DNA of 43,401 nucleotides, from positions 1-43,401 of IMG/VR virus record IMGVR_UViG_3300025372_000018; one strand, given 5' to 3'. Below the pieces are notes generated by a model. It saw only the letters and a list, made by a program, of their open reading frames with translations, was not told the origin of the DNA and searched no databases. The first letter of the stretch is position 1. Every line of letters starts with the position of its first letter. Position numbers and translations under genes: made by a program. This document shows positions 16,275-32,946 of this stretch, piece after piece. The DNA comes from a virus (Duplodnaviria > Caudoviricetes).

Positions 16275-16302
16275 ATAAACAAACCACCTACTAGGAGCAG
16301 AT

Positions 16303-16606: not shown

Positions 16607-16626
16607 AACACTGCTAGGAGAAACAA

Positions 16627-16815
16627 ATGGAATCAACATTGTTAAAGAAGTTAGCTAAAGGTGAGTTCTTCAAACTCAAAGGGTCTGAGACTGCTCCAGT
16701 ATGGATGATTGACTATCGTGATGGTCATTTCATTCATGCCCACAAGTTTGATGATGTAAACCACACCAAAGTGTTTAAGCAAAACAAAGTAGTTTTCTTC
16801 GGCTTTACTTTCTAA
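16627..16815 (+). CDS. Small early protein
   Basis: 62 aa; SD within the ACTGCTAGGAG box. Confidence 0.8.
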   Translation: MESTLLKKLAKGEFFKLKGSETAPVWMIDYRDGHFIHAHKFDDVNHTKVFKQNKVVFFGFTF

Positions 16816-16824
16816 GGGGGATTT

Positions 16825-16941
16825 ATGGGAACACTAGAGCAACGCTACGCTATTTATCTCGCCTGTGCTGATGATGGCACTGGACATTCAATCACTGATG
16901 GCAAGCCACTGAAAACTTTTGAAGAGTGGTTGAATTCATAG
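16825..16941 (+). CDS. 38-aa peptide
   Basis: MGTLEQRYAIYLACADDGTGHSITDGKPLKTFEEWLNS; AAGGGGG SD; stop abuts HH2. Confidence 0.75.
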   Translation: MGTLEQRYAIYLACADDGTGHSITDGKPLKTFEEWLNS

Positions 16942-16990
16942 TCAAACTGATGAGCCTTTAATAGGCGAAACCCAGTGATGGGTCTTTGAC
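16941..16990 (+). ncRNA. Hammerhead ribozyme, type I (HH2)
   Basis: Stem I GUCAAA/UUUGAC; CUGAUGA; stem II GCCU-UUAAU-AGGC; GAAA; stem III CCCA-GUGA-UGGG; GUC cleavage after 16984. Confidence 0.95.
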
Positions 16991-17009
16991 AAACTGCTAG
17001 GAGTTCAAA

Positions 17010-17372
17010 TTGGAAACACAAACTGTAAAGAAAACAATCGACTTATCCCAGTTTTATGGCACTGAGTCGTATCACCGCACTAACCTGTTTACCCCTAACC
17101 TTGTTCACACTGATGGGGTTCAATACTTTGCTGATCAAGGTGGTTGCTACTGGTTCTTGGATATCGTTGCCAGTGAATACTATCCACTGTTAGCTAAAGA
17201 GCCACTGCTCTCCATCCAGTTAGCCGTTGAGGATGGGAAAGCAGATATCTGCGTGGAAGACGGGGATTGCAACATCATCAAGCAAAAGCATATTGCCCTA
17301 ACCGATTGCCCTGATGGGATGTATCGGTTCTTCCTGACTGACAATGTTCTGATGCTTACTTCGGAGTATTGA
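17010..17372 (+). CDS. DUF6876-like protein
   Basis: LSQFYGTESYH...TDGVQYFA...CYWFLDIVAS...LMLTSEY; TTG start after box SD. Confidence 0.7.
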   Translation: METQTVKKTIDLSQFYGTESYHRTNLFTPNLVHTDGVQYFADQGGCYWFLDIVASEYYPLLAKEPLLSIQLAVEDGKADICVEDGDCNIIKQKHIALTDCPDGMYRFFLTDNVLMLTSEY

Positions 17373-17674
17373 TCATGGCAGACTTGATTGACACGATGAC
17401 AGTCAAGTCTCCCCTCTTCCTTGAGGGAAGTTGGGGAGAGCGAGACATCGGCACACACGAATCCACACTGGAGTTGTATTTCAACAAGGACAACACTGGG
17501 TTTATCGAATGGGACATTCCCGATGTTGCCTTTGAATACATTGGTCTTTGGTTCGATATCGACAAAGATGGAAAACGCTCTTTATCTGAATACGATGGGG
17601 TTATGAGTCTCAATGACCATGCAATAGCACTGCTCCGCAAAAACGGGGTGGAAGTAGGAAAGGACTTCGAATAA
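17369..17674 (+). CDS. Hypothetical early protein
   Basis: FIEWD...IGLWF...YDGVMSL; probable start ATG 17375. Confidence 0.7.
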   Translation: MIMADLIDTMTVKSPLFLEGSWGERDIGTHESTLELYFNKDNTGFIEWDIPDVAFEYIGLWFDIDKDGKRSLSEYDGVMSLNDHAIALLRKNGVEVGKDFE

Positions 17675-17790
17675 TGTTCCCCAAGCACGACTGGTTAGTA
17701 AACACCATATTGGTCGTTGCTTGGGCATACATAGCCTTTTATGTATTCCCACAAGCAATTTATCTTTTTATCAAAACTGGAGGGTTCTGA
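17674..17790 (+). CDS. 38-aa membrane peptide
   Basis: MFPKHDWLVNTILVVAWAYIAFYVFPQAIYLFIKTGGF; TAATG and TGATG coupling at both ends. Confidence 0.65.
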   Translation: MFPKHDWLVNTILVVAWAYIAFYVFPQAIYLFIKTGGF

Positions 17791-17960
17791 TGTTCTGTAT
17801 GCACGAAAACCAACACACTTGGGATGAGTATGACGCTCAAGGGATTTTTCTTACAAGGGTCTGCGAAAAGTGCGTGGATGCCAAGTTAAGCCAATACCGC
17901 CCTGAGATCCTTTCAGGGTATTTTCAATCAGATGTAGATGAGCCAATAGAGGAGCAATAA
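17790..17960 (+). CDS. Small Cys-containing protein
   Basis: MFCMHEN...YDAQGIFLTRVCEKC...; GGAGG SD. Confidence 0.7.
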   Translation: MFCMHENQHTWDEYDAQGIFLTRVCEKCVDAKLSQYRPEILSGYFQSDVDEPIEEQ

Positions 17961-17961
17961 C

Positions 17962-18126
17962 ATGAATTATCAAAACTACTTTTCGTATTTAGATGTTTTA
18001 CGAGATTCAGGTGTAACCAATATGTTTTTGGCATCACCTTACTTGGAAGCAGAATTTGGTTTATCTCGCAGAGAAGCAAGAGATGTATTGCTTACTTGGA
18101 TTAAATCATTTAATAAAGGGGAATAA
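17962..18126 (+). CDS. 54-aa protein (DUF5049-like)
   Basis: YLDVLRDSGVTNMFLASPYLEAEFGLSRREARDVLLTW; GAGGAG SD. Confidence 0.7.
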   Translation: MNYQNYFSYLDVLRDSGVTNMFLASPYLEAEFGLSRREARDVLLTWIKSFNKGE

Positions 18127-18127
18127 C

Positions 18128-18700
18128 ATGGGATGGACTGGGACACAATGCTTTTTCAAAATCAGTCGCAAAGACTTTTTGATCAAAGAATTTACGCAAG
18201 AAAACGATACCCACAAATGGTGGCTAACCAATATCTCGATGCGTGGCAACACCGCATATTGCATTAGTTGGCAAGAGGAGAAAGCCACTGGGATCAAACA
18301 CCATGAGGGCATGGTTATCCTGACAGAGAAACGCAGAGAAGATCCTGACTGGATCTATTACAAGAATATGGGGGAGACTGTATTGCCCTATTACTTTGAT
18401 GCTCCCAAGAGCCTTATTACGACTCTTAACGCATTAGGTATGCCGTTCAATACAAGTGCTAAACAATGGCGAGAGCGATGCTTGGCAAATGCCAGTGTCA
18501 AGAAGCCAAAGTTGAAGTTTGGGGATGTTGTGAAGTTTGCCCATCCGATGTCATTCTCATTTTCTACTGGGAGGGTTGAAGAGGACACCTTTACCTATGT
18601 TGAATACGGGACAAAGAAAAATGTATTCAAGACCAGTCAAGGGCATCTTTGCCGTATATCAAAGTTAGCCAATAAAGAATTTACAGTTCTATCAAACTGA
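18128..18700 (+). CDS. DUF6927-like protein
   Basis: Start MGWTG; YKNMGETVLPYYFDAP...AKQWRERC; TGA stop lies inside the HH3 core. Confidence 0.65.
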   Translation: MGWTGTQCFFKISRKDFLIKEFTQENDTHKWWLTNISMRGNTAYCISWQEEKATGIKHHEGMVILTEKRREDPDWIYYKNMGETVLPYYFDAPKSLITTLNALGMPFNTSAKQWRERCLANASVKKPKLKFGDVVKFAHPMSFSFSTGRVEEDTFTYVEYGTKKNVFKTSQGHLCRISKLANKEFTVLSN

Positions 18701-18784
18701 TGAGCCAAGAGTAATGGCGAAACAAGTAAGTATGAGACCGCAAAGTCGTATGACGAGACCGCAAATTACTTACTTGTCTTTGAT
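18691..18784 (+). ncRNA. Hammerhead ribozyme, type I, extended stem III (HH3)
   Basis: Stem I AUCAAA/UUUGAU; CUGAUGA; stem II GCCA-AGAGUAA-UGGC; GAAA; stem III CAAGUAAGUA/UACUUACUUG with 34-nt insert; GUC cleavage after 18778. Confidence 0.93.
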
Positions 18785-18804
18785 TAACTGCTAGGAGAAT
18801 TAAC

Positions 18805-19272
18805 ATGGGTTTAGATATGTATTTAACCGCTAAGAAATACCTTTGGTCTGATGCCGATAAGGAGTTATCTGCCAAGATCAATGAAGCCATTGGAGTTGAG
18901 CCTGACTTTGAGAAACGATTTAATGGTTCGAGTTTGGTTGCTAAAGAGATATCACTGGATGCGATGTATTGGAGAAAAGCCAATGCCATTCATGGATGGT
19001 TCGTCAATGTTGTGCAAGACGGGGAGGATAACTGCCGAGAATATGAGGTAGATCGAGAACAGTTGGAGACACTGCGAGACTTGTGCAAAGACATCCTTGA
19101 GCATCCTGATGCTGAAAGGGAGACCGACTTAGAGCCGACTGAGGGATTCTTCTTTGGTTCTTACAAAAAAGACGAATGGTATTACGAAGACCTGAAGAAC
19201 ACTGTTGAGGGGTTGGATAAGGTTTTGGCATTACCTGACGAGTATTCATTTAGCTATCAAGCCAGTTGGTAA
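18805..19272 (+). CDS. Conserved phage protein (MGLDMY / YWRKANAIHGWF family)
   Basis: Hallmark motifs MGLDMYL, YWRKANAIHGWF, GFFFGS, YQASW; SD within box. Confidence 0.8.
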   Translation: MGLDMYLTAKKYLWSDADKELSAKINEAIGVEPDFEKRFNGSSLVAKEISLDAMYWRKANAIHGWFVNVVQDGEDNCREYEVDREQLETLRDLCKDILEHPDAERETDLEPTEGFFFGSYKKDEWYYEDLKNTVEGLDKVLALPDEYSFSYQASW

Positions 19273-19282
19273 GGAGAGAGCC

Positions 19283-19573
19283 ATGCAAAACATATGCGAA
19301 GACGGATATCAGGGCAATCACGATCCAGTATTAGATGAGTTTGGATTAGATGCTTACGAGCAGATTCAGATGAATTATGAGTCTCTTGACAATGGATCAG
19401 TGGTTGTCAATTTTGATGTATGGGACACCGATAATGACCAAGTTGTAAAGCAAGGGGGTTATGTCATGGTGCGTAAAGACGAAGATGACAAAGTGTTTGC
19501 CGTTGTCGTTATTGATGCCAATGGCGATAAGGTTGCAGAGGTTCATTTGCCATTTAACTTTTTGGAGTGCTGA
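19283..19573 (+). CDS. Acidic hypothetical protein
   Basis: Start MQNICED after AAGGAG. Confidence 0.7.
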   Translation: MQNICEDGYQGNHDPVLDEFGLDAYEQIQMNYESLDNGSVVVNFDVWDTDNDQVVKQGGYVMVRKDEDDKVFAVVVIDANGDKVAEVHLPFNFLEC

Positions 19574-19574
19574 T

Positions 19575-19853
19575 ATGCCAAAAATGCACATTAAAGCGTA
19601 TGAGGTTCTTATCAAATCAGAATGGTATGAAGAGCCTACCTATGTCTTACTGGGAGTAGATGAAGAGGGTCATCCTGATTATGCCGTTTGGGAGTGTTGG
19701 GCAGATGAAAAGATTTACTTTTATTTGTCTCCCGATGAAATGGCTAATCTCAAAGTTGGGGATGTTCTTAACGATGGCGAGGATTTTACGATCCTTGAGA
19801 TTGATCCTGAGCCGACTATTTACGAAGTTGAATACGAATTGGAGACTGTATGA
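19575..19853 (+). CDS. Acidic hypothetical protein
   Basis: Start MPKMHIK after GGAG; DEKIYFY. Confidence 0.7.
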   Translation: MPKMHIKAYEVLIKSEWYEEPTYVLLGVDEEGHPDYAVWECWADEKIYFYLSPDEMANLKVGDVLNDGEDFTILEIDPEPTIYEVEYELETV

Positions 19854-20101
19854 AAGATATCAAAGATTACGACAAATACTGGAATGACGAAGCTAAAAAA
19901 CTATTGCTTCACAAACGCATTGTCAATGTTCGGTATTTAACGCAACAAGAGACTGAAGACATGGGTTGGCATGAAAGGGTTGTTGCCTTTCAAACGCATG
20001 ATGGATTGTGGTTTTTCCCCAGTTGCGATGATGAGGGAAACAGTGGAGGTGCATTATTTACTTCCGATGAAAAACAAAGTTGTTTACCAGTAATGAGGTA
20101 A
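19850..20101 (+). CDS. Conserved phage protein (DDEGNxGG motif)
   Basis: FPSCDDEGNSGGALFT. Confidence 0.75.
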   Translation: MKDIKDYDKYWNDEAKKLLLHKRIVNVRYLTQQETEDMGWHERVVAFQTHDGLWFFPSCDDEGNSGGALFTSDEKQSCLPVMR

Positions 20102-20289
20102 TGATGCCTAAATACATTATCAGGGCTGAGACCAATGTGATGTATGAGAGGGTTATAGAAGCCACCAGTGAAGCCGATGCTTGGGAAAAGGGCAAAGCCC
20201 TACCTGAGTGCGACTTTCACTTGGTAGGCGAATATGACCATGTTGTCTACGATGTAGAACAAACCGATGACGATGAGGATATCGAATGA
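20101..20289 (+). CDS. DpnD/PcfM-like small protein
   Basis: MPKYIIRAETNVMYERVIEATSEADAWEK. Confidence 0.6.
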   Translation: MMPKYIIRAETNVMYERVIEATSEADAWEKGKALPECDFHLVGEYDHVVYDVEQTDDDEDIE

Positions 20290-20498
20290 AAAATGTTTAC
20301 TTAGTTGAAACCAGTGAGACTTGTTTGGTTCACAAGCAATACTCCGTATGTGCTTACACGATGGAGCAAGCCAAAGATATGGTTTTGCGTGGGGATCTTT
20401 ATGACTCAGGCAGGGAATTAGATCATTGGATTATGGATGATCTTGATGTCAATGAAATAAGAAGTATCAAACATTCAAGAGTAGTGGAGGAAGACTGA
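20286..20498 (+). CDS. DpnD/PcfM-like small protein
   Basis: MKNVYLVETSE...YSVCAYTMEQAKDMV. Confidence 0.55.
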   Translation: MKNVYLVETSETCLVHKQYSVCAYTMEQAKDMVLRGDLYDSGRELDHWIMDDLDVNEIRSIKHSRVVEED

Positions 20499-20716
20499 TG
20501 TTTGAAGTTCAACACTACACCCTGTGCGATGGTTGGATTAACTGTTGGTCGGAGGAGGATGAAAACGGAGTAATGATCCCCTCCATTTATAGGACATATA
20601 CCGAAGCCCTAGATGCCTTGAATGAATTTCTTGAAGATGAGTTGATGGAATTTAACGCTGGCAATATTGATTCGATGTATGAATTAGACGAGTTCAGAAT
20701 AATGGAGATTTTTTAA
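20498..20716 (+). CDS. Small acidic protein
   Basis: FEVQHYTLCDGWINCW; coupled. Confidence 0.7.
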   Translation: MFEVQHYTLCDGWINCWSEEDENGVMIPSIYRTYTEALDALNEFLEDELMEFNAGNIDSMYELDEFRIMEIF

Positions 20717-20901
20717 TGCCTAAGAAAACATTGGAAGAAATTGAAGCAGAGATGAACAACATGGTTTTCCAATTAACGAAGCTATGCAAGATGGAGTATT
20801 ACGACTGGCGATTAGAAGACAGGATGCACTATGGTCGGCTGATGGCTATGAAGCAAAGAAGATTGGCTGAACAACAACATAAGAGGACTGAAAATGCCTA
20901 A
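20716..20901 (+). CDS. Small helical protein
   Basis: 61 aa, coupled. Confidence 0.6.
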   Translation: MPKKTLEEIEAEMNNMVFQLTKLCKMEYYDWRLEDRMHYGRLMAMKQRRLAEQQHKRTENA

Positions 20902-21064
20902 ATACGAAGTTAGCTATACATCATGGGTAACGATTGAAGTAGATGCCCATGATGATGACCAAGCCCTTTCTATGGCTGATGCCATTCTCGACACCTTTAC
21001 TGGTGCTGACTTTAGAGAATGTTGTGATTATCAAGGGATCAGGGAGGTAGAACATGGATTATGA
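20894..21064 (+). CDS. DpnD/PcfM-like small protein (56 aa)
   Basis: Not in track: MPKYEVSYTSWVTIEVDAHDDDQALSMA...; GAGG SD. Confidence 0.6.
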   Translation: MPKYEVSYTSWVTIEVDAHDDDQALSMADAILDTFTGADFRECCDYQGIREVEHGL

Positions 21065-21230
21065 GCAATTAAAAGACTTGGTTGGCGAGGACAATGCCAT
21101 TTCAGTCTATGACTATTTTGCCGACTTTACAGTCGATAACTTGATCCAGTTGGTGCTAGATGGCTACACACCTAGCCAGTTGTTGCACCTTGCCAAGCAA
21201 TTAAACCCGTTGGAGGATGACGATGTCTAA
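21054..21230 (+). CDS. Small acidic protein (58 aa)
   Basis: Not in track: MDYEQLKDLVGEDNAISVYDYF...; GGAGG SD. Confidence 0.65.
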   Translation: MDYEQLKDLVGEDNAISVYDYFADFTVDNLIQLVLDGYTPSQLLHLAKQLNPLEDDDV

Positions 21231-21387
21231 TTGGAAACCAGTTGAATTGGTAGAAGACTATTGGATCATTATTGATGAGGATAGCCAAGAAGAGTATCAG
21301 GATGGCACTGGTCATAACATGATGTTTATAAATAAATGGGGTGCTGAAAGAAGGATTCAACAAATAAAGGAAGAAGAAAATGCCTAA
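21223..21387 (+). CDS. Small acidic protein (54 aa)
   Basis: Not in track: MSNWKPVELVEDYWIIIDED...; GGAGG SD. Confidence 0.6.
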   Translation: MSNWKPVELVEDYWIIIDEDSQEEYQDGTGHNMMFINKWGAERRIQQIKEEENA

Positions 21388-21613
21388 CATGAACCGCCTA
21401 CACCGATTCAAGGAATTACTTTGGAATAAGTATGACGAAGAGATCAAAGAAGAGACTGATTGGTTTTACAAGGGATGGGGTTGGGAGATTAACTTTGTCG
21501 AGGATGAAAATGAATCCAGTGCCGTTATCTATCGTGTCAAGGATGGTTTGACTGACTGGAGCGATTACATCGTTTTAGAACGCTATATCAAAGAATGGAG
21601 GAAAGTTGTATGA
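21380..21613 (+). CDS. Small hypothetical protein
   Basis: 77 aa, coupled. Confidence 0.65.
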   Translation: MPNMNRLHRFKELLWNKYDEEIKEETDWFYKGWGWEINFVEDENESSAVIYRVKDGLTDWSDYIVLERYIKEWRKVV

Positions 21614-21804
21614 CTGAACTTTATTTAGTAAAAAGCAGTGGCGAAGATGAATGGGGTAATGAGTATTGGGAAAACCTACAAATCTTTGAGAATCCTACTT
21701 TAGCTAGGAAGTTTGTAGCCAAGCTAAAAAGGTTGTTGAGAAAAGATAAGTCTACCGATAAGGTGGAGATTGAGAACTTCACGCTGAGAACGGAGGAAAT
21801 ATGA
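21610..21804 (+). CDS. Small hypothetical protein
   Basis: Start MTELYLV after GGAGG. Confidence 0.65.
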   Translation: MTELYLVKSSGEDEWGNEYWENLQIFENPTLARKFVAKLKRLLRKDKSTDKVEIENFTLRTEEI

Positions 21805-21977
21805 ATAAATGGGAAGTAGTGCCATTCTTTGACTATGACGATTACTACCAAGTTGGTAGAACAGTCATGGTAGATGGAAAGTATAAATTTGAATCAAAGG
21901 GCATCAAGTATCGGGAAAAATCACAAGCTGAGACTTATGCAAACAAACTTAATAACAAGGAGAATCAAAATGCCTAA
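21801..21977 (+). CDS. Small hypothetical protein (58 aa)
   Basis: Not in track: MNKWEVVPFFDYDDYYQVGR...AETYANKLN; GGAGG SD. Confidence 0.6.
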   Translation: MNKWEVVPFFDYDDYYQVGRTVMVDGKYKFESKGIKYREKSQAETYANKLNNKENQNA

Positions 21978-22554
21978 TTGGTGCGATAACACATTGTATT
22001 TAACTCACAAAGATCCAAAGATGGTGGACAAAGCCATTGAGGGATGGAAGAACAATAAATTTTTTGCAACACTGCGACCTGAACCTGATTACACAAAAGT
22101 CAAAGTAAAGCCTACATTTCCTATGAATGTGGCTACTGGGCAAGCAAAGCCTGAGTTTGTCGAAGCTGACCAAGCATGGTGGGATTGGCGATTACAGAAC
22201 TGGGGAACAAAGTGGGAGATTGTCTCCGATGAAAGCTATATGGACATTCAAGAGAATGAGCATGGCAAATCTATCAGGGCATCATTTTCTACTGCGTGGA
22301 GTCCTCCCACTGACTTGTATGAGTATCTGCATGAAGAGGGTTATGAGATCAAAGCCCACTACTATGAGGGTGGTTGTGCCTTTTGTGGCACATGGGAAGA
22401 TGGTATGGAAGACTTCTATAACATTGAGCCACCTGAAGGTATGAAGACTAGCGTGTGGGTGCGTGAGAACATTCCTGAAGAACTCGATGCAGAGATGGGT
22501 ATTGCCGATAGCTATGAATCATTTGAAGACGAAGATGAAGAGGAGCAAGCCTAA
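21970..22554 (+). CDS. YubB/Api92-like ferredoxin-like fold protein
   Basis: MPNWCDN, WWDWRLQNWGTKW, FSTAWSPP, YYEGGCAFCG; AAGGAG SD. Confidence 0.8.
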   Translation: MPNWCDNTLYLTHKDPKMVDKAIEGWKNNKFFATLRPEPDYTKVKVKPTFPMNVATGQAKPEFVEADQAWWDWRLQNWGTKWEIVSDESYMDIQENEHGKSIRASFSTAWSPPTDLYEYLHEEGYEIKAHYYEGGCAFCGTWEDGMEDFYNIEPPEGMKTSVWVRENIPEELDAEMGIADSYESFEDEDEEEQA

Positions 22555-22724
22555 TGACTAAATACAATGTTTATGCAACGGAAAAAGTTTGGTATCAAAT
22601 TAAAGTAATTGCCAATACAGAAGAAGAAGCAAGACAAATGGTTATGGATGGTAATTACTCATCTTATGAAGCTATTGATGGCGAAAATTTTAATATTTTA
22701 GAGATTGAAAAGGAAGAAGCATGA
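22554..22724 (+). CDS. DpnD/PcfM-like small protein (56 aa)
   Basis: Not in track: MTKYNVYATEKVWYQIKVIANTEEEARQMV. Confidence 0.6.
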   Translation: MTKYNVYATEKVWYQIKVIANTEEEARQMVMDGNYSSYEAIDGENFNILEIEKEEA

Positions 22725-22888
22725 ACCAAGCAGACAAAGATGCTCAGAAGTGGATGGAGATGAATCAGAGAGTGCAATACCGCAACCTTATTAAAGCCAA
22801 AGAACTAGGCGATCTTTACTATATCGACCAACATGGCACAGTCATTGTCCATGATCCGAAAGAAGAGAATGAACCTAAAGAACTGTAA
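22721..22888 (+). CDS. Small hypothetical protein (55 aa)
   Basis: Not in track: MNQADKDAQKWMEMNQRVQYRNLIKAKELG... Confidence 0.55.
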   Translation: MNQADKDAQKWMEMNQRVQYRNLIKAKELGDLYYIDQHGTVIVHDPKEENEPKEL

Positions 22889-23150
22889 GGGGAAAGTGCC
22901 AGTCTTTGTGGGGGGCGATGCCCCTTACAAACTGGTGGATTTTCCGACTAGGGAGCAATTTGACGAAATGTTCAAGCGTAACAATGTTGTTTTACGGGAG
23001 AAATACTGGAATGTTTTGAAGAAGCGTTCACAAGGGCATACACTTATAGAAGTAGGAGGAATGTATACCCTGACTCGTGAAAGGATCAGGCAGATAGAAG
23101 CTAAGTTTTTAAAGAAAGTAGCAGTTTCTTTAGAGACTGGGATGCTTTGA
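22869..23150 (+). CDS. Sigma-70 region 4-like HTH protein
   Basis: HTLIEVGGMYTLTRERIRQIEAK matches the region 4.2 signature. Confidence 0.75.
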   Translation: MNLKNCKGKVPVFVGGDAPYKLVDFPTREQFDEMFKRNNVVLREKYWNVLKKRSQGHTLIEVGGMYTLTRERIRQIEAKFLKKVAVSLETGML

Positions 23151-25412: not shown

Positions 25413-25415
25413 GAC

Positions 25416-26228
25416 TTACTTCTTCTTGGATAAAGATTTGACCTGACGGATCAATTCAGCGTTCCTTTGTTGATACATATCTCGGCTATCACGCAGAGCT
25501 TTGTTGTCAATTTCAAGGACACGAATCTGTTCACGCAGATTTACCACTGTGTCGTGGATGTCCTCAACCTCAATCTCGGTAGCGTTCCATCGTTTGGTGG
25601 CGATGATGTCTCTTGCTTCTGTGAGTTCTTTGTCTAAGATGATGACAGTGTCGGTGAGTTCTTGAATCTTTTCTTCAACGGAGGGGGCTGGTTCTTCTTT
25701 TGGTTCTTCTTTGACCTCAACCTTTGGTTCTTTCTTACTTAACTTCATGGTAGCTTCTTTGCCATGCTTGTTGATGTAAGTAACCTCTTCTTTGGGTGTC
25801 TCTTCCAGTGACTTGCGAATACGACCTATGGTCATGCCTGACACACCGATGTGCTTGCCAATCTGAGCGTTAGACCATTTACTCCATTCGGAGTCTTTAA
25901 TCATGTCTAGAACGATTTGGCGGTTATCTTCTGATGTATGGGGTATGCCATGCTTGTTAGAGCCGTAGGCAAACAGTTTGGCATCTCTGACTGTACCTTC
26001 TTTGACATCGCAGTCAATCGATACATTGCCTATTTGCTTGGTAGCGAAGTAGCGGTGGAATCCTGCTGATAGCCAGTAATCTGAGCCGTCAAAGAACACT
26101 GTTATGGGTGGAAACTCAACCTTGTCACGCATGAGATCTGCGTATTCTTGTACCTTATCTTGGTTAAGTTGTTTGCGTACTTGTGTGCCACCATCAATAC
26201 GGATGACAGCAAGATTTAATCTTTTCAA
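25416..26228 (-). CDS. ParB/Srx-like N-terminal domain, HTH and coiled-coil protein
   Basis: IRIDGGTQVR...FPPITVF...AGFHRY; WSNAQIGKHIGVS; TTG start after box SD. Confidence 0.75.
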   Translation of the reverse strand: MKRLNLAVIRIDGGTQVRKQLNQDKVQEYADLMRDKVEFPPITVFFDGSDYWLSAGFHRYFATKQIGNVSIDCDVKEGTVRDAKLFAYGSNKHGIPHTSEDNRQIVLDMIKDSEWSKWSNAQIGKHIGVSGMTIGRIRKSLEETPKEEVTYINKHGKEATMKLSKKEPKVEVKEEPKEEPAPSVEEKIQELTDTVIILDKELTEARDIIATKRWNATEIEVEDIHDTVVNLREQIRVLEIDNKALRDSRDMYQQRNAELIRQVKSLSKKK

Positions 26229-26235
26229 TTTATTT

Positions 26236-26247
26236 CTCCTAGCAGTT
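26236..26247 (-). promoter_or_regulatory. AACTGCTAGGAG box overlapping SD of ParB-like gene
   Basis: Exact copy of the box found after HH2 and HH3. Confidence 0.75.
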
Positions 26248-26269
26248 GGAAATTCCAGTTTATCAAACT

Positions 26270-26503
26270 TTAGTTATCAAGCCAAGAACAATCCCACTCT
26301 TTTAGTGCAGGGTTTGTCCTAGCTTTCTCTTTTAGCCATTCTTTAATCATTGCCCAGCACTCTTCTTCAAGAATCTCAGGCAGCGGAAACTCTAGCCATG
26401 TAGTTTCAACCGCTGGGGCAGTTATTTCATATTCATCCTGACCTTCATCAAACTTGACTTGTTGACCTTCTGCCCTGATTGGTGCATCCCCAAATCCGTT
26501 CAT
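26270..26503 (-). CDS. Hypothetical protein
   Basis: 77 aa, ATGA overlap. Confidence 0.6.
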   Translation of the reverse strand: MNGFGDAPIRAEGQQVKFDEGQDEYEITAPAVETTWLEFPLPEILEEECWAMIKEWLKEKARTNPALKEWDCSWLDN

Positions 26504-26697
26504 AGCTCTTCCTTTAGTGAATTAATAGCGTATTCAGGAATGTTTTTCCCTTCTTTACGCAAACGAAGAAGTATTTCTATTGCTTCTTCAGCCGTCTTTA
26601 CTGTCCATTCTTCATCGCACCAAATTTCATACTCATCATTGGTGTTATAAAAACAATAAACATCTGACCCATCTGCTCCAAATCTACAAAATGCCAT
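26500..26697 (-). CDS. Small phage protein (CRF...SDVY motif)
   Basis: Start MAFCRFGADGSDVYCF after GGGAG. Confidence 0.65.
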   Translation of the reverse strand: MAFCRFGADGSDVYCFYNTNDEYEIWCDEEWTVKTAEEAIEILLRLRKEGKNIPEYAINSLKEEL

Positions 26698-26709
26698 AAT
26701 TCTGTTCTC

Positions 26710-27045
26710 CCATAGATAGCCCAAGGGTGATAAGCATCACACCTGACCCATTGTTGATAAAACAACCAGTCCTACACTGAGTTAATGTTCAATCGATGGA
26801 AAGTTTGTCTCACCGCTGGCCTTTCCGTCTTGTGTAGTCCCCATTTAAGGCTACGAGGCATAAACGGGGTGAATCGTCAGCCTATGTTCTCTTCCACGCA
26901 ACCCATGTAGGTTCTTACTAACGGATGGAGTCCGTCAATAGATAGCCGACAACAAAAGATAACGACCCATACCTTACGGCATATGTTGTTTACTTAAATT
27001 GTCTAGTGGAGATTGATTCAGCTTCACTATCGGCTAGCAGTTGAG
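26710..27045 (-). ncRNA. Candidate ~335-nt structured RNA / long leader
   Basis: No ORF in track; multiple stems whose G-U pairs only form on the minus strand; own promoter. Confidence 0.55.
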
Positions 27046-27050
27046 TCTGT

Positions 27051-27079
27051 AGGTTACTACGGCTAAAAATATTTTGCAA
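27051..27079 (-). promoter_or_regulatory. Sigma70-like promoter
   Basis: TTGCAA-17 nt-TAACCT; predicted start near 27044 at TCAACTGCTAG. Confidence 0.55.
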
Positions 27080-27083
27080 GCAC

Positions 27084-27118
27084 AAAAGAAAAGACCCCCA
27101 GGATTAGCTGGAGGTCTT
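27084..27118 (-). terminator. Rho-independent terminator of the sRNA
   Basis: AAGACCTCCAG-CTAATC-CTGGGGGTCTT then TTCTTTT; internal U-G pair is only possible on the minus strand. Confidence 0.85.
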
Positions 27119-27225
27119 GGTGTGATCGAGGGCGATCAACGGAGGGCTTGCCATTATTAGAGCACTCATCAACTGCTAGGCCAATAGGGACTAGAAATGG
27201 CAATGTCTATGGGGTAGACAGCACT
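27084..27225 (-). ncRNA. Candidate trans-acting antisense sRNA (~140 nt, four hairpins)
   Basis: Promoter and terminator flank UGUCUA/UAGACA, UUGCCAUU/AAUGGCAA and UGAUCG/CGAUCA stems; carries CCUAGCAGUU, the antisense of the RBS box. Confidence 0.7.
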
Positions 27226-27229
27226 AAGT

Positions 27230-27262
27230 ATAGTATAGATTGACCTAAAAATGTCAATAGGT
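27230..27262 (-). promoter_or_regulatory. Sigma70-like promoter of the sRNA
   Basis: TTGACA (27252-27257)-16 nt-TACTAT; ACCTATTGACAT shared with the 32.9-kb promoter. Confidence 0.6.
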
Positions 27263-27266
27263 TGAT

Positions 27267-27560
27267 TTATTTTGTATCAATTAGGTGGTTTTCAAACAAC
27301 CAACCTATTGTTTTGCGGTGAGCTTCCTCCCACATCTCAATCCTTTGGGATTTTGAGAGTTTCGTGCCTTGGTCGAGTTCCGAGTGGCATGAATAACAGA
27401 GGGCAGCGCACCTATAGTCATGTGCCTTAATTCCCCTACCTTTACCGTCTCGAAGCTGATTGGAATGTGCAGCCACAACTGTGCCGTCAGATCGACCACA
27501 CGCTTGGCATGGGGATTGCCGTAGTAAATCAAGGAGTTTCCTATTTCTATAAATCGTCAT
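27267..27560 (-). CDS. Zn-binding His-Me finger nuclease-like protein (DUF968/DUF1364-like)
   Basis: PCQACG...VVAAHSN...GRGIKAHD...ALCYSCH..LD. Confidence 0.7.
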   Translation of the reverse strand: MTIYRNRKLLDLLRQSPCQACGRSDGTVVAAHSNQLRDGKGRGIKAHDYRCAALCYSCHSELDQGTKLSKSQRIEMWEEAHRKTIGWLFENHLIDTK

Positions 27561-27750
27561 CTTCCCTTATGGGATTTTTGGAGATGTTATGGTTCAAAAG
27601 CGCAGCGTAAGCGTTGTAATAGGCTTCTTTTTCCTGACGGAGCTGGTTAATAATGTAATTAAGTCTGTCTATTTCCATCTGCTGGATATGAAGTTGTTTA
27701 CGCAAATAGTCATCGGCCTCTTCCCGATCATCGGTAGTAAAAGTAGTCAT
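27547..27750 (-). CDS. Hypothetical protein (MTTFTTDDR)
   Basis: 67 aa coiled coil; ATGA overlap. Confidence 0.6.
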   Translation of the reverse strand: MTTFTTDDREEADDYLRKQLHIQQMEIDRLNYIINQLRQEKEAYYNAYAALLNHNISKNPIREDDDL

Positions 27751-28316
27751 TTCTCTTGTGCCTTTCTTAGTATTGCTCTAGCAAAGTCTTTAATATCGCC
27801 TTTATAGCTAAACCAAACAGCATCTATTTCCTCATCTGTTAGTGTCTTTGCTGTTGCCGCCTTGTAGCCTTTCTCAAACCCAATGGATTCCGCAATCCCT
27901 AAATCATGCTCTGCTGGATGGGTGTAGAGTGGTACAGATTTAGCATCACCACCTTTAAGACGGCACAGTTCATCTGCTTCTTCTTTATAAAGAAATACAT
28001 CATGCGGGTTTCCTTCCCATACTGCCCACGCTACTGGTTCAGGACTTGGTAAATCAATCTCAATAGTTTCTAACTTATCTGGGTCTATTTCATAACTTGG
28101 TTCAGGGGTGTTGGTAATAGGGTGTGCCATTGAGTTTAAAGATATTCCATCTTGTTGCTCTAGCTTGGTTGCTATCAAATATCGCAAGTCGGTATTCTCT
28201 TTCTCCAACTCTTCTATTTCAGCTTGTTGCTGGCAAAGCATAATGGCTATTTCTTTAAACCATGAACAGTTGCCACCATTTTTTAATAAATTATCAGCTA
28301 GTTCATTTGCGTTCAT
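27747..28316 (-). CDS. Modular hypothetical protein (MNANELA...EPVAW...PLYTHP...LTDEEI...FARAIL)
   Basis: Motifs typical of variable phage accessory proteins. Confidence 0.7.
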   Translation of the reverse strand: MNANELADNLLKNGGNCSWFKEIAIMLCQQQAEIEELEKENTDLRYLIATKLEQQDGISLNSMAHPITNTPEPSYEIDPDKLETIEIDLPSPEPVAWAVWEGNPHDVFLYKEEADELCRLKGGDAKSVPLYTHPAEHDLGIAESIGFEKGYKAATAKTLTDEEIDAVWFSYKGDIKDFARAILRKAQEK

Positions 28317-28516
28317 TTCTCTTGTGCCTTTTTATGTTTAGATAAAGCATCTACCAAAACAATGCCTATTTCATTGTCCCAAACTGTATTTTGACCATCA
28401 CTCCAACCTTCTTGAACATAGATAACCTCTTGGTCATAGTTAATATCGTAAGTTACTTTTGACCTACTAACACGCTTTTGAGTACATAAATCTTCAGCTA
28501 GTTCATTTGCGTTCAT
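28313..28516 (-). CDS. Hypothetical protein sharing both termini with its neighbour
   Basis: MNANELA...KAQEK. Confidence 0.65.
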   Translation of the reverse strand: MNANELAEDLCTQKRVSRSKVTYDINYDQEVIYVQEGWSDGQNTVWDNEIGIVLVDALSKHKKAQEK

Positions 28517-28689
28517 TTTTTATCCTTTGAAGAAAACTTTTGATGGCTAATTTTCTTTAAACAATTGGCACACTTCCAGCGTTTGATGCTTTTATGAGCA
28601 GTCTGTATGACCTGACCAGTGTCTGCTGGCTGATAGGAAATACATGACGAGCAGTATCTGAGCTTACCGACAGATGGAATTTCAAGCAT
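28513..28689 (-). CDS. Small Zn-ribbon protein (58 aa)
   Basis: Not in track: ...RYCSSC...RWKCANC...; ATGA overlap. Confidence 0.65.
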   Translation of the reverse strand: MLEIPSVGKLRYCSSCISYQPADTGQVIQTAHKSIKRWKCANCLKKISHQKFSSKDKK

Positions 28690-28888
28690 CTTTTTTAGAT
28701 CTCCGTTTAATGGCTGGTAAACCTACAGTCTCCTTTGGTTCTAAGGCTTCTAGTAGGGCATCGGCATACTCGACAGATGCATTACTAATCATATCAAGGG
28801 GTGCAGCTCCACCATACGCCAGTAATCCGTTCATGGCAAACAGTGAAGCCAGTAACCTTGCGTGTTCTTTATCTTGTTCGTTCATCAA
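28682..28888 (-). CDS. Small conserved phage protein
   Basis: FAMNGLL...YADALLEAL. Confidence 0.65.
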   Translation of the reverse strand: MMNEQDKEHARLLASLFAMNGLLAYGGAAPLDMISNASVEYADALLEALEPKETVGLPAIKRRSKKDA

Positions 28889-29154
28889 TGCACCTGTTTA
28901 ACCAGTTTCTTTAATCGGCTTTTAGCGTTCCTGAAGGATCGTGTAAAGGCATATACGGCTTTCTCTTCTTCCATACCCATTTCTACGGCAATGGTAGATA
29001 GCACCATAGATACTGCTCCCAAAATAACAGTAGCCTCTACATCTGCTTTAGGAGCTAATAAGTGAAATATCTCTAATGCTATTTCACGAGATGGATCTTT
29101 AATCTTTTCTTGCAATGCTGCTTCCATAAATTTTGGATCACCGATTTCAGCCAT
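28885..29154 (-). CDS. Hypothetical protein
   Basis: 89 aa, coupled. Confidence 0.6.
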   Translation of the reverse strand: MAEIGDPKFMEAALQEKIKDPSREIALEIFHLLAPKADVEATVILGAVSMVLSTIAVEMGMEEEKAVYAFTRSFRNAKSRLKKLVKQVH

Positions 29155-29512
29155 TTGTATTTCCTTGTTTAATTATTGTTGTGGATCCAAAGAACCTACG
29201 TTCTAGCAGATCTTTATCTTCATCACCACTGCGTTCCATTACTAAAGTCTTGGCAAAGTCTCTAAATAACTTCACATCTTTGTATTTATCTTGGAAAGTG
29301 CCACGCTGACCATGTTCGTAACTTAATGGATCAAAAGCATGAAGAACGATGTCTTGATCCCAATACTTATAGCGTTTACGCAAATAGTTCATAGTTAATC
29401 GAACATCTTCTACTTTTGCCATCGTGGGATCTAGCGTTAGCATAAGAAACAGCAAACGCAAAATGATCCAGTCTTGTTTTTTAACCTTATGTAAACCGCC
29501 ATATTCAATCAT
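29147..29512 (-). CDS. Hypothetical protein
   Basis: 121 aa, coupled. Confidence 0.6.
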   Translation of the reverse strand: MIEYGGLHKVKKQDWIILRLLFLMLTLDPTMAKVEDVRLTMNYLRKRYKYWDQDIVLHAFDPLSYEHGQRGTFQDKYKDVKLFRDFAKTLVMERSGDEDKDLLERRFFGSTTIIKQGNTNG

Positions 29513-29787
29513 CGCTTTAGCTCCTCTATGCGTTCTGACAGAACCACGCCCAAGTCTTTACCTTTAATGGCAATCATTTGGGCTTCTTCGCAGTCATAAA
29601 TTACTTTGGCTGCATCTTGGATTCCTACGTTGTAGCCAGTCGTAAATGCATCTGTGCCATCAACCAACATACCGATGGCGTTACGAATCAGAACAGATGC
29701 CTTACGCTGTTTTGCCAGTTCCTTTAGCTTGTTGTGATGCTCCAAAGGGAGGTATACCGAGTAGGGTATTAGTTTTTTTGTGTCCAT
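29509..29787 (-). CDS. Ribbon-helix-helix-like DNA-binding protein
   Basis: YSVYLPLEHHNKLKELAKQRKASVLIRNAI. Confidence 0.55.
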   Translation of the reverse strand: MDTKKLIPYSVYLPLEHHNKLKELAKQRKASVLIRNAIGMLVDGTDAFTTGYNVGIQDAAKVIYDCEEAQMIAIKGKDLGVVLSERIEELKR

Positions 29788-30191
29788 TCCGTATATTTTC
29801 TGTGTAATTTGTCTAAGAGTATTTGAGCTGAACGATTAGTTTTGAGGTCGGATCTGGATGGGACATTGAGATAATTACGAACCCATTCAGTAGCCTCTTC
29901 CATATCTTCATCAAAGATCTGCTCTTCGGCATACAAATACTTCCAAAATTTAGGATCTCGGCAGAGTAAACCAGCGATACGAATAGCTCTATCGCCAGCA
30001 AACTCTTCTGCTTTATCCATCGGTTGCTCATCTCCGTTAACTCTGACTAAGACACATTGATATCTCGCCCCAACGTAATCCCTGAGTAAATCTTCAGGAA
30101 TCTCATCAGGATGCAGTGACAATGTAAGCACATAGCCAGTCTTATCTTGTTTGAGAGCGACTTTAACGGCTTCGAATTGTAAGGTATTCAA
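29769..30191 (-). CDS. Conserved phage protein
   Basis: Probable TTG start LNTLQFEAVK after GGAGG; AGLLCRDPKFW...VPSRSDL. Confidence 0.6.
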   Translation of the reverse strand: MNTLQFEAVKVALKQDKTGYVLTLSLHPDEIPEDLLRDYVGARYQCVLVRVNGDEQPMDKAEEFAGDRAIRIAGLLCRDPKFWKYLYAEEQIFDEDMEEATEWVRNYLNVPSRSDLKTNRSAQILLDKLHRKYTEWTQKN

Positions 30192-30537
30192 CTCTGCCCT
30201 CCAAGTATTTAACAAGCTTCTTCCAGTCTTCAATGGTTTCCCAACGCTGAACGCAAATACGAGCCAGCTCTTCGTTTTCCTGACGGAGCACATTGAGTTC
30301 TACTTCTTGCTTTTGGGCTACTTCTTCCCAATGCACTGGTGCTCTTTCAGAAATCAAGCGTTGAATATTGGCTTCATGTGCAGCTTCTGCTTCCATTTGA
30401 TCAAAAGATACTGGAGCTGGTTTTTTAATGTGCTCCATCATCTCTATAAGTTCTTTTGCTTTGGCTGCTTTAGATGGGCGACCACGTTTCTTTTTCGTAG
30501 GAATCTCTAGATTGATTGTGTAATTAGGGTTTTGCAT
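30163..30537 (-). CDS. Hypothetical protein with AT-hook-like KRGRP and coiled coil
   Basis: Start MQNPNY after AAGGA. Confidence 0.55.
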   Translation of the reverse strand: MQNPNYTINLEIPTKKKRGRPSKAAKAKELIEMMEHIKKPAPVSFDQMEAEAAHEANIQRLISERAPVHWEEVAQKQEVELNVLRQENEELARICVQRWETIEDWKKLVKYLEGRVEYLTIRSR

Positions 30538-30547
30538 TTTCTTATCC

Positions 30548-30799
30548 TTAGTACGGGAGTTCTTCTTCAGGTTTGACATAGGGTTCCGCTGCGGTTAGTG
30601 AGGTGTAATTCATGCCAGACTTGGAGGTATTGTTCCAACCTGACAGGGCAATCTTGACCATTGATCCTTTGGATTTATCCATCTGCTCAATGAGAAAAGT
30701 CTTATCCAAGAAGATATCTCCACGCACATCAGGATGATTGGGAGTCTTCTTTTGATTGGGGAATAACGCCCCAGTGTTTGGTTTTTGTTCGTAAGCCAT
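30548..30799 (-). CDS. Small ssDNA-binding-like protein (DUF736-like)
   Basis: GALFPNQKK..NHPDVRG...LSGW; acidic EEELPY tail; adjacent to ERF. Confidence 0.6.
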   Translation of the reverse strand: MAYEQKPNTGALFPNQKKTPNHPDVRGDIFLDKTFLIEQMDKSKGSMVKIALSGWNNTSKSGMNYTSLTAAEPYVKPEEELPY

Positions 30800-30802
30800 G
30801 TA

Positions 30803-31483
30803 TTACTCCTTTGCAAATTTGTTTTTGGTTTCAGTAAACTTGCCCATCATCTCTTTGAAGAAATCAGGGTTCATTAGTTTGACGGTATCAAAGAGGGCTT
30901 TGTTCTTCTTAAATATCGTCATAACATCGGCATCGCTAGAACATAGGTCTAGCAACATATGGGAGGAAGTCTTGACCAGCTCAAGCCATTCAGTGGTATC
31001 GCCTTCAGGTGGACCATCAATAACAATCTGAAACTCACCCTTTTGACCTTCAATCCTTTTGACTGGCTTGGGTTCAGGCTTTGGTTCTATTTTCTTTACT
31101 GGCTCAACCGCACCAGTGGTCGCATCTAAGGCATCGTGCTCCACAATAGCCATAGCAGTGGTGTAAAGATACCTACGTTGATAGGTCTCTACTGCACCAA
31201 TGTTTTGGACTTCATGGCAACCTTTGAGGGCTGCTGAACCCATTGGAGATGTGAAAGTAACCCAGCTACCACCATCCATATCGTAAAGGGTCATCGTAGC
31301 TAACTCTGCATCAAAAGAAATGATATCAACCAAGCCGACTTCTTTGAAGATCTTCTGAACTTCAGGCAGAAAATCACCCAGTTCAAAGTATTTATATCCT
31401 GCGAACTTGTTATGTCCTGATTTCGTGAGTTGTTTGGTCTGCAAGATGTTCCTTGCTTCTATTAGTTTTTTATAAACGCTCAT
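30803..31483 (-). CDS. erf: ERF-family ssDNA-annealing recombinase
   Basis: KSGHNKFAGYKYFELGDF and QNIGAVETYQRRYLY. Confidence 0.85.
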   Translation of the reverse strand: MSVYKKLIEARNILQTKQLTKSGHNKFAGYKYFELGDFLPEVQKIFKEVGLVDIISFDAELATMTLYDMDGGSWVTFTSPMGSAALKGCHEVQNIGAVETYQRRYLYTTAMAIVEHDALDATTGAVEPVKKIEPKPEPKPVKRIEGQKGEFQIVIDGPPEGDTTEWLELVKTSSHMLLDLCSSDADVMTIFKKNKALFDTVKLMNPDFFKEMMGKFTETKNKFAKE

Positions 31484-31492
31484 GTTAGTTCC

Positions 31493-31642
31493 TTAAAAAC
31501 AAGTAGTGTTGCAATTGCCGTAGTTATCGCAACAAGTGGTACAAACGACCATTTTGTTGCCATACATGACAGTTTGAGTAGTACAGGCTGCATAGGTAAA
31601 TGCCGATGCAGAGATAAGCCAAATGGCTATTAGGTATTTCAT
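31493..31642 (-). CDS. Secreted six-cysteine mini-protein (49 aa)
   Basis: Not in track: MKYLIAIWLISASAFTYAACTTQTVMYGNKMVVCTTCCDNYGNCNTTCF; AAGGA SD; ATGA overlap. Confidence 0.75.
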   Translation of the reverse strand: MKYLIAIWLISASAFTYAACTTQTVMYGNKMVVCTTCCDNYGNCNTTCF

Positions 31643-32514
31643 GCTTGTTCCTTTAAATAAGTTTGATACTGGTTACACCATGTAGACACTGGGCAATAGC
31701 TTGCACAGCGAGTTCTTTCCCCTTTACGCTCTACGACTTCGTACTTATCACCCAGTTCTGTATAGGCTGCAATAGCTTGTTCAGCCGTTTCATACAAGGA
31801 ATGAGCACGTTTACCGCCAATCTTCATTACCGCCCATACTGCTGGCTTTTCCCACATTTCTTCGGGGGTACAATCAGGTAAGTCTCCATCGGTTTCTAAG
31901 GCGAACTCACACGCTGAATGTGCAGAGATACGGGCTTTGATGAACTCTTCACGCTCTGCCATAGTCCATAAAGTGATTGGTACTTCTTTGACTGGGGCTT
32001 CGGGATAGCCCTCTTTGGTTCCTACTTCTCTAGACTTCCAATCACGCAAAATAGCCACGATGCCTAAGTCTGTGATAGGGGTTCGTTTGACCTTCTCAAC
32101 TAACCAAGCGTAACAATTGAGCTGATATTCCCACTCAATCTTCTCGTTCATCACAGCCCAAACACTGGTAGTCTTGTAGTCTTTGATAGACAAGCCACCA
32201 TCGTTAGTGATCTGTAAGTCGATAGCACCGCTTAGATTCCAGCCATCTATCTCGGCATGGATGCGTTCCTCCACAGTGTGATTAGCATCTTTGCCATGCT
32301 CTAGGATGTTATGAATGGCAGAACCAAATAGTGACCAAACCATCTCAGCCACATCTTGCTCAAGCTCATCATCAAACTTCTTAGTCAAGGCAACAATCTT
32401 AGGACTGTTGATTAACTGGGTTACGGATAGATTAGCCTTACCTTTGGAATAAGTAGGGCGTTTTAAGACATTGACAAATGTCTGTGGGATATTAAATTTG
32501 TTTGTTAGCTTCAT
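31639..32514 (-). CDS. PD-(D/E)XK exonuclease (RecB/Cas4-like)
   Basis: GSAIH, LSGAIDL, DYKTT, QLNCY, C-terminal RCASYCPV..C cysteine cluster. Confidence 0.85.
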   Translation of the reverse strand: MKLTNKFNIPQTFVNVLKRPTYSKGKANLSVTQLINSPKIVALTKKFDDELEQDVAEMVWSLFGSAIHNILEHGKDANHTVEERIHAEIDGWNLSGAIDLQITNDGGLSIKDYKTTSVWAVMNEKIEWEYQLNCYAWLVEKVKRTPITDLGIVAILRDWKSREVGTKEGYPEAPVKEVPITLWTMAEREEFIKARISAHSACEFALETDGDLPDCTPEEMWEKPAVWAVMKIGGKRAHSLYETAEQAIAAYTELGDKYEVVERKGERTRCASYCPVSTWCNQYQTYLKEQA

Positions 32515-32653
32515 CTGCTGCCTCGTCTAACTTTAAGTTGAAAGCCTTGATCTGTTCCTCAGTCAAGGGTCGGATTCCCAGTTCTTTATCCATAGACCGA
32601 AAGACGGCTCTGAGAATTTCGCACTGCATGGGGGTAAATACATCATCTTCCAT
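32492..32653 (-). CDS. Small hypothetical protein
   Basis: Start MEDDVF after AGGA. Confidence 0.55.
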   Translation of the reverse strand: MEDDVFTPMQCEILRAVFRSMDKELGIRPLTEEQIKAFNLKLDEAADEANKQI

Positions 32654-32661
32654 AATGTTTC

Positions 32662-32883
32662 CTATCTGAAAAGAAAGCTGTAGAAGGCAAGTAGTAGTAA
32701 CCCAATTACGCTCAAGCGAATAACCCATGCTTCTATGCGTTTGGCTCTACGGTATTGCGGAGTGGATAAAAGTGCTTCTTGAAGAAACAACATATCTGGG
32801 TCATCAATTCGTGTTCTGTTACCATCTTCTTGATAACGAGAACCCATCTTGATACCAGTCTTTGTGGTATATGGTACGGTCAT
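32662..32883 (-). CDS. Small protein with C-terminal TM helix
   Basis: PYTTKTGIKMG...DMLFLQEALL; SD within box. Confidence 0.7.
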   Translation of the reverse strand: MTVPYTTKTGIKMGSRYQEDGNRTRIDDPDMLFLQEALLSTPQYRRAKRIEAWVIRLSVIGLLLLAFYSFLFR

Positions 32884-32890
32884 TTGATTG

Positions 32891-32946
32891 TCCTAGCAGT
32901 TAATCAGACTTTATTTTCACTGATATAATTAACCATGTCAATAGGT
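32891..32946 (-). promoter_or_regulatory. Promoter plus TGATTAACTGCTAGGA box
   Basis: TTGACA (32936-32941)-17 nt-GAAAAT (32913-32918); predicted start near 32906; 16-nt identity to the HH3 3' flank. Confidence 0.65.

Follow-up and report, generated by a model that had tools for sequence, protein, structure and literature searches.

Over its whole length of 43,401 nucleotides (the window), the 43.4-kb virus record IMGVR_UViG_3300025372_000018 raises the question of why one short sequence, here called the box and counted as ACTGCTAG, recurs at the ribosome-binding sites (RBSs) of its early, recombination and replication genes. Our analysis points to an RNA partner. A small RNA that the phage itself would encode (sRNA; about 27222-27085, minus strand) probably binds at the box; it would pair with the messages and block ribosome loading. 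The conserved target of this RNA is likely the adjacent replication-operon leader, to which the RBSs of five genes would have been added in the present clade.

A recurrent box and a predicted RNA with its complement

We counted ACTGCTAG on both strands of the window and compared the number with Markov resamples of order 2 and of order 4, 100 of each kind. The window held seven copies where 0.7-1.1 were expected (mean 1.09 and maximum 5 at order 2; mean 0.69 and maximum 3 at order 4), which bears out the recurrence claimed in an earlier sequence-only reading of this DNA. The excess was less striking for the 10-mer box with one mismatch allowed, with 8 copies versus 3.0 expected, a number that 1 of 100 shuffles reached. 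All six copies listed in the earlier reading were present, one of them a single base from the position given (32890-32901 rather than 32891-32902), and five overlap the RBS of a gene, as it had said of the SD (Shine-Dalgarno) sequence. One of these genes, that of the ParB-N protein (25416-26228), heads the series ParB-N, helicase and primase. The copies behind the third hammerhead and at 32.9 kb share exactly the 16 identical nucleotides noted then; this extension is not kept at the equivalent of the 32.9-kb site in relatives. Two sites had been missed, a reversed seventh copy at 27171-27180 and a weak variant at 16287-16297. The latter precedes the first early gene, where many relatives carry an exact box, unlike the weak CCTACTAGGAG of the window.

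The reversed copy sits inside a gene-free promoter-hairpin-terminator unit on the minus strand (Table 1). The predicted sRNA consists, in order, of a short 5' hairpin, a long hairpin whose loop holds the seed, a small GAUC hairpin and an intrinsic terminator. Its fold had a z-score of -3.44, and none of 200 shuffles was equally stable. No Rfam match at E<=1 was found for the unit in the window or in four relatives.

Selection on helicase similarity and nothing else gave 35 viral loci, many of them near-duplicates, and 33 of these contained the unit; the other two hold only 1.2-1.3 kb upstream, and their near twins carry the unit at 2.2 kb. Over all loci (numbered with L below) there were 41 distinct canonical units. 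The layout was the same in the 25 loci listed, with promoter, seed and terminator kept and the rest drifting. The promoter retained TTGAC.. plus (TG)TATAYT-TAG in relatives, and the terminator stem retained its structure with variable sequence. The seed formed an eight-base conserved island within otherwise divergent units and was more unpaired than the remaining RNA in 27 of 29 units (0.78 vs 0.42), a set that includes one spurious second match in L009. A seed-free scan for promoter-terminator units complementary to at least two gene leaders returned the same units. Some box-bearing relatives had seemed to lack the sRNA; their units, with variant seeds, turned up in a seed-free comparison. 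L167 and L204 were dropped as variant-box loci, since their contigs carry the ordinary box and an antisense copy.

The adjacent leader, the distant sites and the hammerheads

Directly behind the sRNA terminator lies a second promoter, and the first bases of the non-coding leader that it would start are a variant of the box. The sRNA and the 5' arm of this leader can form about 18 bp with one bulge, with a duplex energy of -29.9 kcal/mol. With the shared core excluded, the adjacent leader of the same locus was the best partner of the sRNA arm in 15 of the 18 distinct pairs, at -15.7 kcal/mol versus -7.6 kcal/mol for other leaders (0 of 100,000 permutations, uncorrected for kinship). These pairs came from 20 of 25 loci (four were without an adjacent GCUAG and one twin was dropped) after removal of two duplicates. 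Ten farther metagenome loci, found by seed-free comparison, kept the cassette with the seed CUCUCUC and the leader start AUGAGAG; own pairs scored -32.5 and -24.1, and cross-clade pairs about -12. These comparisons make pairing between the sRNA and its leader highly probable.

The predicted sRNA would compete with a fold-back of the leader, because the same leader arm pairs with an internal segment. For this fold-back, cognate partners gave -20.8 versus -14.6 kcal/mol (22 loci), the own partner being best in just 8 of 22. A conserved structured module farther along the leader contains two related TAMATGG-loop hairpins and had no Rfam match. The phage record MW202674 matches a piece of it, and in relatives its place is taken by at least three other modules. 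A small open reading frame (ORF) in the module was rejected, as relatives do not agree on the frame and hairpins account for the changes. An ATG follows the adjacent sRNA site in L016 and L038.

At the distant sites the sRNA could form 9, 10 and 13 contiguous pairs with the boxes behind the first, second and third hammerheads (HH1, HH2 and HH3), 11 with the ParB box and 13 with the box of the exonuclease operon, and only 5 with the weak variant at 16287. The seed of many relatives is CUCCUAGCAG, which extends over the whole SD. Judged by duplex energy, the predicted strand did better in 13 of 18 cases and in 20 of 25. In L224, CGCUAGGAG at three of four gene starts and the seed CUCCUAGCGG in the loop represent the sole core change on both sides. 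Pairing across an RBS usually blocks loading of the 30S subunit, so we read the outcome as repression, and we regard repression of the distant RBS boxes by the sRNA as likely on this sequence evidence.

Three of the boxes stand behind hammerheads, with the predicted cut 10 nt from the box core at HH1 and 9 nt at both HH2 and HH3. HH2 and HH3 fit a strict pattern (CUGANGA plus GAAA core, NUH site, stems I-III, open stem I) that had no match in 30 resampled genomes. HH1 is a predicted hammerhead with an extra U that does not figure in the list given in section 8 of PMC3088659; this inserted U recurs in 9 distinct variants. Rfam gathering scores were not reached, with 21.4 bits against 52 for HH2 and 33.2 against 34 for the best relative. 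A box followed 47 of 58 distinct hammerheads, a fraction inflated by loci fetched with a hammerhead-plus-box pattern. Among the 47, stem I had 12 variants, stem II 33 and stem III 35, with pairing kept, as the search required. A relative without boxes also has a hammerhead-like core (L230:9099), in non-coding sequence upstream of ParB.

The sequence-only reading had placed five copies close to a predicted 5' end, three made by ribozymes and two by promoters. The count for ribozymes stands; that for promoters does not, since three copies follow promoter-like sites. The fixed 5'-proximal position itself is found across relatives, where 57 distinct box sites lie 8-13 nt downstream of a hammerhead cut, a class inflated by the same fetching pattern, and 48 lie 6-14 nt downstream of a -10-like hexamer, by a promoter pattern that matches 9% of shuffled controls. 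All fetched loci together held 230 distinct box sites, made up of 168 at an ORF start, 26 in antisense units and 36 without an ORF by the rule used. At most 16 nt separates 105 of the 168 gene-start boxes from a hammerhead cut or -10-like hexamer; the others lie behind a long hairpin (29), at the first early gene (11) or elsewhere (23).

The long hairpins (..GGGAUUGCCAUU..GGUAAUCAU), which look RNase III-like, stand before the box in place of the window's hammerheads at L014:17423, L022:16213, L030:13357 and others (minus). In L010, L063, L078, L152, L227 and L238 the box of an internal early gene comes after a third kind of upstream element, ACAAAGAGUUUUUUAACCGCAUUAC. The early promoter in L009, L041, L054 and L131 contains CTTGACAGTCAAG, an inverted repeat spanning the -35 hexamer that could be a true operator; its counterpart in the window is degenerate, near 16222-16232.

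Limits of pairing in trans and rival explanations

Several observations weigh against regulation of the distant sites in trans. Seed pairing in the window covers only the bases before the SD and the GG of GGAG. Strong co-variation was confined to the adjacent leader, and the test is weak for the distant RBS boxes because their core barely varies. The co-variation in L224 is weakened by L341, a 96% relative that keeps the usual seed. Variant seeds occurred in ten loci: five had G-U-compatible changes only (L215, L224, L245, L352 and L414, the last showing no gene-start box; one variant-seed search could find only variants of this kind), and five had true mismatches with RBS boxes that were still canonical (L031, L345, L348, L366 and L367). 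G-U counts, at 24 vs 26, leave the strand undecided. When raw duplex energies were ranked over the whole window, the adjacent and exonuclease-operon sites alone were in the top four non-self matches, HH3 came 18th, and HH1, HH2 and ParB fell outside the first 21. Pairing with the adjacent leader could also occur in cis within a read-through transcript. In the CUCUCUC clade, no matching box stood at gene starts in the four loci with leaders read, so a trans regulon is not the conserved job of the cassette; the conserved pair is the sRNA and its leader, and the RBS boxes are likely a clade addition.

The remaining points of this kind concern the extent of the regulon and the ribozymes. No box copy lies at the starts of the head, portal, terminase and giant virion genes of the window, so the "genome-wide" regulon of the sequence-only reading was overstated. 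Its grouping of early, recombination and replication genes narrows to five or six first genes of non-structural messages and one non-coding leader, the leader being the most conserved target. That reading also held that cleavage exposes the leader. Predicted box opening energies were nearly unchanged between uncleaved and cleaved RNA (1.5/1.5, 3.2/2.6 and 2.4/2.3 kcal/mol at the three sites), which speaks against such exposure. Nor do the ribozymes seem to exist for the box: type I hammerheads stand directly before start codons in many unrelated phages (L092-L206) with no box and, in some, no SD. We read the hammerheads as general makers of 5' ends, in line with the proposal in PMC3088659 and PMC6765202, onto which the box was added. 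A single post-transcriptional regulator is itself supported, the candidate being a phage sRNA whose loop carries the antisense box, although not by way of ends unmasked by cleavage. Because core co-variation is weak, the strand undecided and the duplex ranking incomplete, the trans part is likely and no more than that.

The rival that survives best is that the sRNA acts on the adjacent leader only, as a two-part switch like that of P4 CI, and that the other boxes are unregulated copies of an RBS cassette spread by recombination; we consider this unlikely. It would account for strong co-variation only at the leader, for the farther clade without boxes and for seeds that erode while boxes persist. 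It also fits sister clades that repeat identical RBS cassettes before up to ten small genes, some without an antisense unit seen. Sister phages with 37-50% ParB identity carry at their early genes, among the matches listed, AGGAGAUCA(G/C)AC, AGGACUGACC or AACGGAGGA. In the AGGAGAUCA clade an antisense-bearing terminator unit lies beside the exonuclease gene and divergent from it in three of six loci (L011, L271 and, more loosely, L333), a point in favour of the regulon; no antisense unit was seen in L328, L331 and L259, a further point against the regulon. However, loci with the CCUAGCAG seed have matching boxes at unlinked promoters and ribozymes and on both strands, and the eight shared bases stay fixed amid free drift of the leader arm and of the remaining sRNA, as expected if several fixed targets constrained them. 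We also know of no RBS role for CUGCU upstream of an SD, which likewise counts against action on the leader only.

Further private early-gene boxes were seen, among the matches listed, in L250 and L274 (AGGACUGACCUAUG; AACGGAGGA). Hairpins related in sequence follow one another at L274:7780-8080, and no clear antisense unit was found.

It is much less probable that the box RNA is bound by a host or phage protein, such as a CsrA/RsmA-like reader of GGA, or by an extended host 16S anti-SD, with the sRNA as an activator or incidental. The box does overlap GGAG, extended SD motifs are reported for other bacteria (PMC13009471), and the leader pairing opens the fold-back and could activate. However, the leader copy has lost GGAG and still pairs with the sRNA, and folding predicts RBS boxes that are fairly open as they stand, so there would be little to activate.

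Stoperators are known from the Cluster A mycobacteriophages. Least probable of all is that the box is an oriented DNA site of this kind (named in PMC3203893) for a protein such as the winged helix-turn-helix (wHTH) product of 14312-14539 or the helix-turn-helix (HTH) product of 22833-23150: three copies do lie just downstream of promoters and such candidate proteins are encoded, but the fixed distance from ribozyme cuts reflects an RNA event, the reversed copy lies in the predicted loop of a gene-free promoter-terminator unit, and arm and leader co-vary, with whole seeds replaced and complementarity kept.

With pairing to the sRNA as the preferred reading, the predicted course is as follows. 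The sRNA would build up from its strong sigma-70-type promoter, and its loop would first contact the box near a free 5' end. At the adjacent leader, pairing would grow to about 18-25 bp, displace the internal fold-back and switch the replication-region leader. At the five RBS sites, 9-13 bp would form across the GG of the SD and the bases that immediately precede the SD, so that the first gene of every early, recombination and replication message would be translated less. Cuts by the hammerheads would divide the early transcript into units that start just upstream of an RBS; they would place the box, and unmasking is not predicted. The likely purpose would be to brake early and replication genes after a delay, or to keep close kin from establishing a second infection.

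The record has a completeness rating of 68%, and its gene blocks are given with the other features in Table 1. A LexA-type DNA-binding protein (wHTH) is encoded between the terminase genes (14312-14539, minus), and the early region ends with the gene of a sigma-70 region 4 HTH (22833-23150, plus). No match to an integrase or antirepressor family was found among 70 proteins with Pfam and 38 with PHROGs. The host search gave no close prophage in 49 genome loci, the best identity being 30-47%, and the phage collection held no cultured relative above 60%. CCGG and CGCG were absent from the whole window and GGCC stood at 0.11 of expectation, which points to host restriction sites.

Table 1. Features of the window, with positions in nucleotides unless kb is given
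Feature	Position	Strand	Remark
Box and SD, ACTGCTAGGAG	16610-16620	plus	SD of gene 16627-16815
Box and SD, AACTGCTAGGAG	16992-17003	plus	SD of gene 17010-17372 (DUF6876)
Box and SD, AACTGCTAGGAG	18786-18797	plus	SD of gene 18805-19272
Box, AACTGCTAGGAG	26236-26247	minus	RBS of ParB-N gene
Box, AACTGCTAGGAC	32890-32901	minus	first gene (32662-32883) of exonuclease/Erf operon
Variant box, AACTGCTAGC	27033-27042	minus	5' end of non-coding leader
Weak variant box, CCTACTAGGAG	16287-16297	plus	first early gene (16303-16551)
Promoter-like sites upstream of boxes	26257-26285, 27051-27079, 32913-32941	minus	
Predicted sRNA, about 135 nt	27085-27222	minus	from fold; +1 estimated within a few nt
Seed CCUAGCAG	27173-27180	minus	reverse complement of box core; UAGCAG in apical loop of long hairpin
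Predicted sRNA promoter, TTGACA + TATACT	27227-27257	minus	19-nt spacer (TACTAT at 16); 10 of 12
sRNA intrinsic terminator	27091-27118	minus	11-bp stem, U run; best terminator of scanned region
Second promoter, TTGCAA-17-TAACCT	27051-27079	minus	would start adjacent leader; TTGCA..TAATCT in relatives
Leader 5' arm with variant box AACUGCUAGC	27024-27045	minus	best-matched sRNA target
Internal leader segment	26941-26952	minus	predicted to pair with 5' arm when sRNA absent
Conserved structured leader module	26715-26936	minus	two-sided changes at 15 of 33 predicted pairs, 19 loci
HH1, type I	16555-16606	plus	extra U between A9 and stem II; predicted cut after 16600
HH2, type I	16941-16990	plus	predicted cut after 16984; weak Rfam HH9 match, E 0.68, below gathering
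HH3, type I	18691-18784	plus	long stem III; predicted cut after 18778
Head, portal and terminase genes	1-15.9 kb	minus	
Small early genes	16.3-23.1 kb	plus	
Primase, helicase and ParB-N protein genes	23.1-26.2 kb	minus	
Exonuclease/Erf operon	27.3-32.9 kb	minus	
3,317-aa protein	33290-43243	minus	Strawberry-notch-type helicase and LPD38 domains (Pfam); presumably DarB-like

Comparison with known systems

The CI RNA of satellite P4, with seqA and seqC, is a similar switch. The predicted sRNA would work like CI and like c4 of P1 and P7 (RF01695), yet it is not a c4 member. As described in parts of PMC5320573 (with a family table in PMC2864571), c4 is likewise a phage RNA encoded apart from its target, its loop pairs with a site just downstream and partly covers an RBS, and RNA and target change together between phages, as found here for the sRNA and its adjacent leader. 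In contrast to c4, the present sRNA has no RF01695 match at E<=1 in the window and four relatives, and it has one conserved loop seed, its other loops being variable, instead of three stem-loops with loops a' and b'. The c4 RNA is about 77 nt long and is cut from a precursor by RNase P; the present predicted unit is 85-140 nt long with its own promoter and terminator and no sign of a precursor. Furthermore, c4 sits in a lysogeny immunity region (icd, ant) and no icd, ant or kil genes were found in the present, 68% complete record; here there would be five or six further targets over three transcription units, three of them behind ribozymes.

The sar RNA of P22 and the OOP RNA of lambda have targets encoded opposite them. 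Both are, as here, phage antisense RNAs that lower the translation or stability of phage messages, but in the parts of PMC12197685 that treat them they have single targets and no shared seed over many genes. In a collection short of most subscription papers, we found no paper on a phage sRNA that targets a shared RBS motif or on the present RNA; the supplements of PMC10690425, whose alignments hold 10,006 viral candidates, and of PMC5737381 lay outside this search and could list the RNA or the leader module unnamed.

Clustered prophage hammerheads (PMC3088659; PMC6765202) resemble those of the window in that several stand in one early transcript, each before a start codon. They were proposed to cut polycistronic RNA and were active in vitro in PMC3088659. 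In contrast to the present case, the relevant parts of these papers describe no shared downstream box or antisense regulator.

The start-associated sequences (SAS) of Cluster K mycobacteriophages (PMC3203893) are likewise a private asymmetric sense motif that overlaps the SD of non-structural genes, and in four K1 phages a single reversed copy sits apart from any gene start. The SAS differ in sequence and host, in their 11-19 copies and in being accompanied by DNA inverted repeats (extended SAS, ESAS) and not by ribozymes. With the 13-bp SAS consensus the box shares TAGGAG alone. The elements seen upstream of boxes here were hammerheads, promoters, long hairpins and others, the 17-bp inverted repeats of ESAS, found at about half of SAS sites, having had no dedicated search. 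When refolded here, the single reversed SAS of mycobacteriophage Anaya lay in an open 10-nt hairpin loop; unlike in the present phage, no promoter-terminator unit has been shown for Anaya. The right-hand parts fetched of Pixie and TM4 held no reversed SAS.

Whether RNA or protein is the partner of the SAS was left open by its authors in 2011 (PMC3203893) and has stayed so since. The present reading gives a testable job to such private gene-start motifs and to early-region hammerheads, both left open in the cited papers. More tentatively, and with the doubts slightly outweighing the case for it, ribozymes and promoters might give messages the same leader and one sRNA might silence all non-structural messages through a shared seed, in an RNA-only circuit; if this is true, the same principle, worked with different sequences in sister clades and Anaya, would explain the SAS. 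The sRNA of such a circuit could conceivably have first evolved to switch the replication leader, and its seed would resemble that of a microRNA, a suggestion we hold as tentatively as the circuit itself. The seed-replaced, box-less clade suggests how such a regulon might originate, namely from a two-part antisense switch of the c4 and CI kind that gained further targets.

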